NCBI GenBank assembly: GCA_012295275.1
Contig: CM022679.1
Location: 14,632,001-14,696,000, forward strand
DNA: 64,000 nucleotides
Source: Chrysomallon squamiferum
Taxonomy: Eukaryota > Animalia > Mollusca
Direction of reading: 5' to 3'
Both the position numbers and the translations under genes were made by a program. Each line of letters begins with the position of its first letter. Within the stretch, counting starts at the first letter, position 1. Positions 51,155 through 55,600 of the stretch are shown here, piece by piece. The notes below the pieces were generated by a model. That model saw only the letters and a list, made by a program, of their open reading frames with translations. It was not told the DNA's origin and did not search any database.

Positions 51155-51205
51155 TCAGTCAAGTTTGCTTGCATAGCTCTTCAATAAATGACGAGGGCAA
51201 TCAGT
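51155..51205 (-). CDS. GFPT1: GFAT alternative (duplicated) terminal exon with divergent C-tail
   Basis: Poly-T tract + cag acceptor, then TDCPRHLLKSYASKLD*. Phase 0; aligns to the canonical last exon [14 protein letters not shown]. Confidence 0.75.
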   Translation of the reverse strand, partial: TDCPRHLLKSYASKLD

Positions 51206-52640
51206 CTGAAAAAAAAAAAAATTAAAATTTTTTAAATTATAGTTAATTAAAATATACAGGTTGAACATCTATCAGAAAAGTCTGAAATCTGAAGCATTTC
51301 AGGTAAGAGATCCTCAATTTGTCAACACAATGACATCAGAATAAAGATGCTGTCACATTTACCAATTCATAATAGTAGCAGGTTTAATCACTAAAATATA
51401 ATATCTATAACAAATGTCTAAAACATAATTAATTACATTATGTCATTGTTATTTAACTAATTTTAATTAAATTACACAGTGCTAGTGATAATTTAGAAAC
51501 TTATCCAAGGAAAAATGTTTTTTAATGAAACTGAAAAGTCTTTTTAATATTGTTTTATATTGATGTGGTTAAAGTAATCGTACAGTTTTTACAATGCACA
51601 GTGACTGTCTTAACAATAATAATAATATTAATAATAATAATAATAATAATAATAATACCAAACAGTAGTTTTAAAATTAATAATATTAACAGTAAACAAC
51701 AATAATAATATTTTTCACCATCATTACTTATTTCCAGCATTATAATATAAAATAATAAAGATCAATAAATATGTGGTTATTTGTAATTAGTTTGAGAATA
51801 TTACAGAAGTATAATACAAGTATTTATTGACAGAAGCTGATAATTTAAAAAGCAACATAGCATAAGAATACAGATGGACGGGGTAAAACAAACAAGTGCA
51901 GCTATTTAAAAAAGGAAATTTGAATTTCCACGTTTAAACAACCACATCAAGGATATTTTCTCTATTGAAAATACATGTTAAAGACCATACTGATAATGAG
52001 AAAAAACTCAACATTGTTTTTTTTTTTTTTTCTCAAAAGCAAGAACTTTTATGAACTATATGCTTGTTGTGATGAAGGGGAAAGAACACACAAAAGCTTT
52101 TGATAAATGAGAAACAAAGCCTTGGTTGGAGTAAAAAGCTGCATCGAAGAAGAATTAATTGTGTGAGTTGTGACATTTCAGCACTTTACTCAGCTCCCAA
52201 CAGAAAGTCCACTTAAAGTAACCAACCAAATCCAGATAACTAATACATAGATGCTTCAGATAACAGATGTTTCAGATAAGTAATATTCTGCAGATAACTA
52301 ATTTAGAGATGGTACAAAAGTATCAAAATACCCAATATTTAGAATAAAAGTAAAATACAAGACCAGTAACTAATACTGAATGTAAATAGATATAAACTTC
52401 AAAGTGTCAAGTAACAAATACAAAATTTTCATGGAAATAATATTTATGAGAGATAAGAAAAAGTCTAGGCATACTTGGTTACGGAAAACTCAAAAGTCCA
52501 ATTAATATAAAAATCTGGAATAATCAATATTTATAATACAGATTTAAAAAATAAAAGTACACTTAATCATGGTCAAATACAGGTAACAAAATACAGGTAG
52601 TACAGGTAAAGTGCTTACAGGTGTTGAGATTGTGAAAAGT

Positions 52641-55600
52641 TTACTCTGTGGTAACACTCTTGGCCAGATTCCGTGGACAATCAACCTAGAAAAGAAACCA
52701 GCTCTCAGCACCGGTACACTGGGGTATTTATACACAGCAGTTAGCAAAAGCAAACAAAGAGAACAAATGGGAAGATAACAGTGCAATTAATTTTAGTCAT
52801 TTGATACATTTTTATTATGCAGATAAAAAAAATGTATGTATATATATTGAGCTTGTTATGTTATTGTTAAACTTTATTACTAGAAAAGTTTGCTTGTCTT
52901 TATTTAATAAACATTTGAAAGTAAAATTTAAAACATAAAAGACATCAATGAATTTAAAAAATGTTAATAAATTGTATCAATAATCAATATGTATCATTTT
53001 CTTGTTAAAATGTTCACTTATAATTTCACATAAAATTACAAATTTTTTTTTTTTATTTTTTTTTTTTTTAAGAATTAATATTTTTAAAATATATATAAAT
53101 TTAAATGAAATGATTTTATTTTGTATTTAAAAATAACATGAAATAAATAAATTCACACATTACATATTAAAAAGTAAGTTATTTTGAATGTTTTACTCAA
53201 AAATATAAAATAAAAATAAAAATATAAAACCATATAAAAAGGGTGCAGATTACCCTTAGAAGCCATTAAACCACACCTGACATACATATTAATAAAGCAC
53301 ATATAACACTGGTATTAATTTCCCCTGCAGTCCTTTCCTTAAACAATTCCATAATAAAAGCATGCATAAAATAACACTAGAAAGATTTCAGAAAATAAAG
53401 GATAACATCAAACTTAACTACATGTAAAAACAATTTTTTTTTTTTGGTTAATTTTAATTTAAAAAAAGGACCATAATAATAAAAATAAATAAGTAAATAA
53501 ACAATGTATAAGAGAATTAGTATATAAATATAAATAAATAAAACAAATATCTTTTGGAATTTAGTCAATTCCAAGTAAAATTTCCATTAAATTTAAAAAA
53601 AAAAAAAAAAACCCATTAATATAAAATAAAATTGGCAAAGATTAAGTTAATAAACATACAAAATCTAAATAAAAATGCTTAGCTATAACTATGTGGTTTG
53701 AATTACATTTTACTAACAAATTAATATCCTAATATTTATAATTTAAAAAAGTCAATTGTGCCACAAGTGTATAAATGAATTTGTGTATTAAAACAAGTTA
53801 CAACATTTATCTAAAATTATCTAAATTGTGAATAAATATCTATTACAGACAACAGACAAAAAAAAAAAAAAAAAAAAAAAAAAAAAGAAAAAAAAGAATA
53901 AATAACCAAATGTTTTTTTTACTATTATTTAAAAATATATATATATATAGTGCAATTATAAACTGGAAAATAGAATATTTTAAATATTATTAATCAAGTT
54001 ATTGCTTTAAAGTTTAATTTCTGAAATCTTTTAATTAATCTCATCCCTGAAAGCAGAATGTGAATAACCACCATCAACTGTTTTATGTCTGCACCTCATT
54101 CTAAAGCAGCAGTAAATAATATTTTTTTATTTTATTCTAAATTGTTAGTATTATTATAATTATTATTTATTAAAATATTTTTTTTTCTTACAGTTAATAC
54201 AATGAAGCCATTCTATATTCATCTGCCTGGAATCACTAACTAAAGCATTTTTTTTTATATATATACATATATAATTTTTTGACCAGAAGAATGTAAGAAA
54301 CAGTGTTTTAAAAGACTAGCTACTTATATTGGTTTATTTCTTCCAACAAACCTTTGTGAAGTTGTTAATAATGCAGAGTATACTGTTACATTGATTAATG
54401 AACTACAAACAGACTGCCAGGAAAACAGGCAATCATATCAAAATGATTAGAAAATAAAAGTTGAAGATTCCAATATGGCATTTTTGATTTCAGACTTGTA
54501 TTCCAAAAACAAAATCTTCAGAAGAAACTCACAATTAGGTTATCTGTGTTCATATCTTGTTATTTTATTTTATATGAATATTATAATTATGCAACTTCCC
54601 CAAGACAGGAATACATTTAGAAGAAAATTTGAAAACTAGCTGTGAGTCAAAGGACTGATGCAGAAAGAACTGTGACCTGCCAAAATGTATTTGTAACTGG
54701 TATGAAAACACTGAACTTTTTTAAAAATTAAATAAAATAATTCAAGTAAGGTGTAATTTTACTTTTTTAATAACTTGTTTATTTTTTATTTTATTATATT
54801 ATATTTTTTTTAAATTTATTTATTTATTTATTTGGTTTGTTTATGGCTTAAATATTAGCAATGTCCTATTAACTAAAAGAAAAATGATGAAAAAAGAATT
54901 CCTATATAATAATAAAATGTAAATGAATTGAAATAAACATCAATATGATAATAAAAATAAAAGAATTCTTATGTAGAATAATATTCAGCAAAAAAAAAAA
55001 AAAATATGAGGTATTATCATAATGAAAATAATAATAACCAGTATAACATAAATGAATCAAAAAGGACATAAAAATGAATAATAATAATAATAATAACAAT
55101 AATAATAACAATAATAATAACAACAACAGTAACAACAATAATAACTAACTTCAGTATAACAAAGACAAAAAAATAAAAAACAGTTTTTATCACACAGACA
55201 TGCTAATGAGATCTGGTAGTTGTAGAAGTATAAACCTCTGTAGATTGGTGAGTTTCTGCAGAAGATATCTAGCAGTTAAAGGCTTACATCGAATCCCCGT
55301 AAAACTGCGATATGGAAAGAAAGCATCTGCATGGGAATCACTGTGAGCACCCCCTGCAGACAGTCCACGTTGTGAGGTAAATCCACATGTTTATAAGCAA
55401 AAGTTTGAGTGGCAGTGTCGTTCTGGTTACAAATGATAATCGGGCGGCCCTATAAATAACATGGGTACATTGAACAACGTGGAATTAAAAATGCTACAGC
55501 CTTACAAGAAAACCTAGGACGTACGTGTTACTTGTTTATTCTAAAAAGCAAAAACGAGGAGAAAATAGACAATATTGTGTTAGCAAGCAGTGCTGGTATG

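Follow-up and report, generated by a model that had tools for sequence, protein, structure and literature searches.

An alternative last exon of the Chrysomallon squamiferum GFAT gene encodes a second C-tail with apparent counterparts in other lophotrochozoans

GFAT/GlmS (glutamine:fructose-6-phosphate amidotransferase; human GFPT1, E. coli GlmS) opens the pathway to amino sugars and chitin. Its C-terminal tail (C-tail) is a textbook example of a near-invariant element that couples two active sites, and one of its residues, Lys603, forms a Schiff base. Among the closest described systems, the human muscle form GFAT1-L (GFAT1Alt) carries an internal insert and leaves the C-tail untouched, PKM1 and PKM2 are made from duplicated, mutually exclusive exons, and GlmD/NagB-II have GlcN6P deaminase activity. 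Here we describe a 64 kb stretch of the Chrysomallon squamiferum genome (hereafter the window) that contains the 3' half of a minus-strand GFAT gene. Past the canonical last exon, T1, lies a second last exon, T2, which is spliced into GFAT mRNA and encodes a different C-tail. Judging from related sequences, T2 appears to be an ancient, lophotrochozoan-wide alternative last exon, common to molluscs, an annelid and a brachiopod.

When fructose-6-phosphate binds, the C-tail becomes ordered and the isomerase site shuts; the channel forms once glutamine binds (PMC10087520). The catalytic residues are Glu488, His504 and Lys603 (PMC9272926; PMC3224219), the role of Lys603 being described also in PMC7000685. 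These positions, and those below unless another enzyme is named, are in E. coli GlmS numbering, for which the register of the T2 tail was taken from a comparison of the T2 profile with E. coli and human structures. In human GFAT2, Leu675 and Ala676, which are 601 and 602 when counted from the C-terminal end, touch the gate tryptophan, and the C-tail and Trp74 build a channel that limits ammonia leak (PMC7948480). In the Candida enzyme, Ala706 and Val709-Glu712 (E. coli 602 and 605-608) take part in inter-domain signalling, which is disrupted by removal of the last four residues (PMC3224219). Human Thr679, which takes part in glutamine hydrolysis (PMC7000685), corresponds to position 606 and is replaced by Ala in Chrysomallon T2.

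Compared with these systems, the Chrysomallon gene is an ordinary GFAT and T1 is its canonical tail, whereas T2 departs at positions 600, 602 and 604-608 from a sequence that elsewhere hardly varies. The GFAT splice variant described in the literature, GFAT1-L, is likewise an isoform of one GFAT gene, but it is an expanded form (PMC7948480; PMC10138107, a review that does not mention molluscs), while T2 swaps the active-site lid itself. As with PKM1/PKM2 and with AGX1/AGX2 of UAP1, which differ in substrate preference within the same pathway (PMC10138107), splice choice here alters an enzyme's catalytic or regulatory surface; unlike in PKM and UAP1, there are two independent duplicated pairs, the last of which carries the catalytic residue and the channel wall. 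GlmD/NagB-II share a homologous isomerase fold and, to go by weak profile matches, a homologous lysine-bearing tail. However, they lack the glutaminase domain that the T2 isoform probably retains, T2-type proteins being full-length at 677-767 aa, so the T2 isoform is not a stand-alone SIS enzyme.

The exons at the 3' end of the gene run in the order P1, P2, T1, T2, where P1 and P2 are two copies of the penultimate exon:

51205-51155, minus strand: T2, distal alternative last exon (coding part), phase 0, reading TDCPRHLLKSYASKLD*; covered by RNA contigs of runs X1-X3 and 15/16 identical to Gigantopelta P0047 and P0049.
51206..51221, minus strand: T2 splice acceptor, 13 T then CAG, where the RNA contigs cease matching.
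51026..51154, minus strand: portion of the T2 3' untranslated region (UTR) under RNA contigs, which reach 51026 in X2, 51103 in X1 and 51106 in X3.
50896..50901, minus strand: AATAAA, candidate poly(A) signal of T2, by sequence match only.
52685-52641, minus strand: T1, proximal canonical last exon (coding part), 14/14 identical to Gigantopelta P0002 and P0048.
51823..51828, minus strand: AATAAA, candidate poly(A) signal of T1, by sequence match only.
55449-55288, minus strand: P2, penultimate exon copy of the type that other animals have; 162 bases, 54 codons, phase 0/0.
56228-56067, minus strand: P1, second penultimate exon copy; 162 bases, 54 codons, phase 0/0; mutually exclusive with P2 in the isoform models of relatives.
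58724..58762, minus strand: last common exon ahead of P1/P2, 13 codons.
59426..63135, minus strand: six GFAT exons further upstream, which encode residues about 328-609 within the isomerase domain and show 93-98% identity with GFAT of Gigantopelta.

The GFAT exons in the window are 93-100% identical to residues 328-690 of P0002 from the closest relative, the gastropod Gigantopelta aegis; P1 is 93% identical to this protein and P2 is 87% identical to Gigantopelta isoform X3 (P0048). Gigantopelta GFAT matches human GFAT1 over 1-687 and has a GATase and two SIS domains in Pfam. The two SIS sub-domains expected of a GFAT/GlmS are thus found, since the window exons match P0002 and Pfam recognizes SIS, as two stretches, in P0047. 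The exons for the N-terminal class II glutaminase domain, which in GFAT/GlmS has Cys at the mature N-terminus, lie past the window end; the domain is present in the Gigantopelta orthologue P0047, and the lengths of the RNA contigs fit a whole coding sequence.

T2 has its own acceptor, stop codon and candidate poly(A) signal and lies 3' of another terminal exon, as is characteristic of an alternative last exon of the skipped, tandem type. A preliminary description of this DNA had placed a second phase-0 exon with a strong acceptor about 1.4 kb past T1; the coordinates and translations it gave for both exons are exact, with a gap of 1,436 bases between them. It had also pointed to residues kept despite codon changes, and this holds: 7 of 14 residues are identical between T2 and T1, five of the seven through differing codons, and 22 of the first 42 bases match. 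A D-x-P-R-x-L-x-K pattern occurs twice in the six frames of the window, in T1 and in T2, versus 0.01 times per 64 kb in 100 shuffles. P1 and P2 share 33 of 54 residues.

Evidence for splicing came from three RNA runs of one study (X1, X2 and X3) and a further run (X4), aligned over 50890-51610. In each of the first three (3/3), one contig spans T2 and some of its 3' UTR, with the match ending at 51204 and zero depth on the intron side. The X1 contig has 2,255 letters, of which 30-131 aligned and 2,124 continue elsewhere, and the X3 contig has 2,185, of which 1-99 aligned and 2,086 continue elsewhere; the X2 contig has 275 letters, 96 of them ahead of the junction. The unaligned lengths in X1 and X3 (2,124 and 2,086) come near to the count of about 2,028 coding bases found ahead of the tail in the 692-aa isoform of Gigantopelta. 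T2 is spliced into GFAT mRNA; that the upstream part of the X1 and X3 contigs consists of GFAT exons we infer from their length, which is about that of a whole mRNA, and from the orthologous isoforms that carry T2. The three runs of one study make one line of evidence, and contigs give no expression levels. Run X1 also contains about 74 of 672 sampled words, where T2 and one penultimate exon would explain about 21 by a rough estimate, which makes it probable that other parts, T1 and its UTR for example, are transcribed there too. In X4 there were only two repeat-like matches of 21-24 bases. At 51103 the X1 contig has a 29-letter loose end without a match in the window, and at 51109, within the T2 3' UTR, X1 and X2 both show a T>C difference.

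We then compared T2 with relatives. A search with P1 as query gave 46 proteins among 50 candidates and was extended by cluster listings and by a profile of ten T2-type tails (best 120 of 7,727 matches). Clustering at 90% and 50% can hide isoforms, and the Lingula copy described below surfaced only through a cluster listing. In Gigantopelta, isoforms X1 and X4 end in TDCPRHLLKSYASRLD, identical to T2 at 15 of 16 residues, while isoform X2 joins P1 to T1 and isoform X3 joins P2 to T1. T2-type tails are found in the gastropods Patella, Littorina, Babylonia, Pomacea, Arion, Biomphalaria and Physella, in the bivalves Mytilus, Pecten and other scallops, Magallana/Crassostrea, Dreissena, Mercenaria, Mya, Ruditapes and Potamilus, and in three Octopus species. 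Outside the molluscs, the annelid Ridgeia has one, in a garbled model that also joins P1 and P2, and the brachiopod Lingula has a degenerate one (P0208, isoform X4) that reads IEHPGGLLEVHTS. The Lingula tail retains Leu-Leu and a His at 605 and is without Arg599 and the catalytic Lys603; the exon thus persists, minus the catalytic lysine, in the models of at least one lineage. Four T2-bearing proteins fall outside Mollusca in a quick tree, which shows only this placement, as its careful search was unfinished and insects and a rotifer were placed oddly inside. No T2-type tail was present in the Haliotis, Aplysia, Lottia, Lymnaea, Bradybaena and Sinanodonta records retrieved, which are incomplete isoform sets, or in the 11 Tribolium and 7 Acanthoscelides cluster members and other insect records retrieved, a thin and incomplete sample. 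The profile search was a single pass with ten tails, so that diverged T2-type tails in other phyla could escape it.

Most of the T2-type sequences from relatives are predicted isoform models. The full-length T2-type proteins P0116, P0212, P0123, P0130, P0219 and P0464 come from contigs that are probably transcripts, given their size of 2.4-3.5 kb. In two lineages both tails stand behind the same type of penultimate exon (P0244/P0464; P0216-17/P0215, 18, 19). Of the 41 proteins classed by penultimate exon, 32 have the T2-type tail after P1 and 8 after P2, with one left unclassed; because T2-type tails follow either exon, the penultimate and last exon choices combine in the models of several species. 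The preliminary description had taken T2 for a genuine alternative last exon under selection, with the catalytic lysine retained and the lid changed, and the RNA contigs and the conservation in molluscs, an annelid and a brachiopod bear this out. It had named two outcomes as fatal to the idea, no splicing to T2 and absence from relatives, and both have failed to appear, with splicing in 3/3 RNA runs and T2-type tails in related animals. The retained lysine holds for Chrysomallon T2 but is not universal, being lost in the Lingula copy. No paper describing the T2 exon was found in the open-access literature, a search whose coverage left most subscription journals and supplements aside, and the supplements of genome papers could list such isoforms. 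T2 isoforms are already present in databases as unremarked models.

Among 18 distinct T2-type tails, Pro598, Leu601 and Leu602 are present in all 18, as is a Tyr or His at 605, and Asp596, Arg599 and Lys603 are each present in 17, Lingula being the exception each time. Position 606 is Thr in ten, Ser in five and Ala in three. Positions 600, 604 and 607 onward vary freely, and the tails are 13-16 residues long with a varying last residue. To avoid circularity, residues 602 and 605 were left open in the pattern used for a recount of 291 stored proteins with an intact tail, which gave 236 with Ala/Val, 35 with Leu/Tyr and 20 with Leu/His at 602/605 and no intermediate. This recount set aside proteins without a recognizable tail, the Ridgeia model and the 150 representatives described below, and counted isoforms of the same species separately; part of the set came from the T2-tail profile, and the tails retrieved independently of the profile show the same 602/605 states. 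Of the best 150 of 2,241 matches in a representative library of 1.84 billion proteins, 145 have Ala/Val and none has Leu602. Because clustering at 50% hides animal isoforms, this count says only that the Leu602 state is not common in microbes.

The canonical channel-forming end (Ala602, Val605, Thr606, Glu608) is present in T1, whereas T2 has Leu, Tyr, Ala and Lys at these positions and two extra residues. The catalytic Lys603 that marks a GFAT/GlmS is found in T1 and T2 alike. T1 ends in T-T-E, not T-V-E, as do its counterparts in Gigantopelta and one Haliotis species. There was no solved structure with a T2-type tail among the matches of the T2 profile, and AlphaFold models of Gigantopelta P1-T2 and P1-T1 (27-sequence alignments) are too poor to judge the tail, with a mean pLDDT of 59.5 and 61.0, respectively, and values below 50 over the last 40 residues in both.

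What might such a tail do? We see about an even chance that T2 keeps the sugar-site lid and narrows the ammonia channel, yielding a low-output, partly uncoupled GFAT that is selected by the last-exon splice choice. This reading is suggested by the division of the T2 tail, which retains the sugar-facing half, with the residues that close over the sugar site, and changes exactly the half at the interface. Bulky residues at 602 and 605, together with loss of the fixed V-T-V-E end in tails that are free after 606, would lower the share of ammonia that reaches fructose-6-phosphate, and cells would turn hexosamine synthesis down through splicing. Floquet et al., in 2007, reportedly lowered ammonia transfer in GlmS by placing a larger residue at Ala602 or Val605. 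T2 subunits could also damp T1 subunits, because the GFAT dimer has sites built from both, each sugar site holding residues of the two subunits (PMC7000685). An uncoupled or regulatory product, as the preliminary description had envisaged, seems plausible and has a specific basis in the fixed changes of Ala602 to Leu and Val605 to Tyr or His at the domain interface; nothing favours the 'isomerase-biased' enzyme that it offered as well.

Several observations weigh against a low-output enzyme. Lys603, Arg599 and, in 15 of 18 tails, the hydroxyl at 606 are kept, as suits a working enzyme. A long GFAT contig ends in T2 in two of the three RNA runs, which hints, as far as contigs without levels can, that T2 is not minor there and is awkward for a weak enzyme. 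In human GFATs about half of the ammonia leaks away in any case (PMC7948480), and the L405R change, which locks the human C-tail, did not alter kinetics (PMC8041777). Given these kinetics, and given that human GFAT lacks the Arg331-Glu608 bridge of the E. coli enzyme (PMC8041777), the loss of Glu608 in T2 may matter little.

According to the main rival, the T2 product would be a fully active synthase whose kinetics or feedback is retuned, for instance through lower sensitivity to UDP-GlcNAc, for tissues with high chitin or mucus demand; the bulky residues would repack against the Trp/Tyr gate and block nothing. Lys603 in 17 of 18 distinct tails and the 606 hydroxyl in 15 of 18 are in keeping with this view, as are the full-length contigs that T2 ends in two of three RNA runs and the transcript-sized contigs of relatives listed above, and simulations link UDP-GlcNAc inhibition with C-tail mobility (PMC3224219). 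However, Ala602 and Val605 are fixed in the canonical form from bacteria to animals (236/236 canonical tails), and the Lingula copy has no Lys603, so that we regard a retuned synthase as a real possibility but on the whole an unlikely one. The kept Lys603 and Arg599, the fixed bulky residues at 602 and 605 and the freed end would be explained jointly if T2 reroutes nitrogen, with the channel shut, the lysine kept and the isomerase site trading free ammonia with solvent, and acts as an aminase on free ammonia or, in the opposite direction, as a deaminase of GlcN6P in the manner of the stand-alone SIS enzymes GlmD/NagB-II. The T2 profile does match the tails of the stand-alone SIS proteins 2dec, 2cb0 and 3fj1 (E 0.05, 0.1 and 1.6), which we take to be deaminase-type enzymes whose tails also depart from N-L-A-K-S, but these matches are weak, rank below all GFAT/GlmS chains and come without a control profile of canonical tails. 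In addition, animals possess GNPDA as a dedicated deaminase (it is named in PMC7000685 and in PMC8041777), and a literature search on GlmD yielded nothing on that enzyme. We consider such a change of nitrogen route improbable.

A non-catalytic GFAT, serving as a scaffold or sugar-phosphate sensor or differing in stability or location, would account for the Lingula tail without Arg599 and Lys603, yet the lysine is present in all molluscan and annelid-like tails seen. Because T2-type tails vary in length (13-16 residues) and in their last residue, they share no end motif for a binding partner or degron, and a C-terminal motif of either kind was set aside; we think a non-catalytic role quite improbable. 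That T2 is a functionless, decaying duplicate or an artefact of gene models is largely refuted, and we give it next to no weight. Although most sequences from relatives are predicted models and the incomplete records of the six mollusc genera named above have no T2-type tail, T2 RNA contigs leave the genome at the acceptor in Chrysomallon, the same two-state motif recurs in three mollusc classes and an annelid, and both tails stand behind the same penultimate exon in transcript-sized contigs.

Several animal phyla keep a second version of the C-tail, in which two positions that probably line the ammonia channel carry the same substitutions. T2 may be viewed as a natural, long-tested mutant of a drug-target enzyme that is a control point for chitin, mucin and O-GlcNAc supply, and the four isoforms, which are alike except for 14-16 or 54 residues, offer a direct test bed for the channel-gating model. 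If the low-output reading is true, molluscs and annelids may regulate hexosamine flux by last-exon choice. If nitrogen is rerouted instead, a splice switch dating back to the origin of the lophotrochozoan phyla would let one gene set the direction of amino-sugar flux. Molluscan GFAT annotations with a single isoform miss a possibly major form.

The mutually exclusive P1/P2 pair, which encodes the helix just ahead of the C-tail, appears to be as old as the T1/T2 pair. It is kept in gastropods, bivalves, a cephalopod contig, Ridgeia and Lingula, the last with three versions. P1, which is not the type common to insects and human, is the commoner of the two in the records retrieved with P1. In the freshwater pulmonates Biomphalaria and Physella (P0148, P0046), a second GFAT paralogue carries an insertion in its P1-type exon.

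Elsewhere in the window, 45481-44327 on the minus strand is a single, apparently intronless open frame of 385 codons with the ligand-binding and membrane domains of a Cys-loop ligand-gated ion channel. Exons for RUN and FYVE domains lie at 23568-23750 and 39053-39205 on the plus strand and probably belong to one RUFY-type gene. Between them, at 29643-29365 on the minus strand, is a frame with a hydrophobic leader and no Pfam match, which we take to resemble a neuropeptide precursor of the GnRH/corazonin type; given its position between these plus-strand exons, it probably sits inside an intron of the RUN/FYVE gene. An exon of a tetrahydrofolate dehydrogenase/cyclohydrolase gene is found at 7036-6767 on the minus strand. 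Finally, the segments 2833-2982 and 22287-22439, 19 kb apart, are near-identical with almost the same translations and are probably copies of a dispersed repeat.

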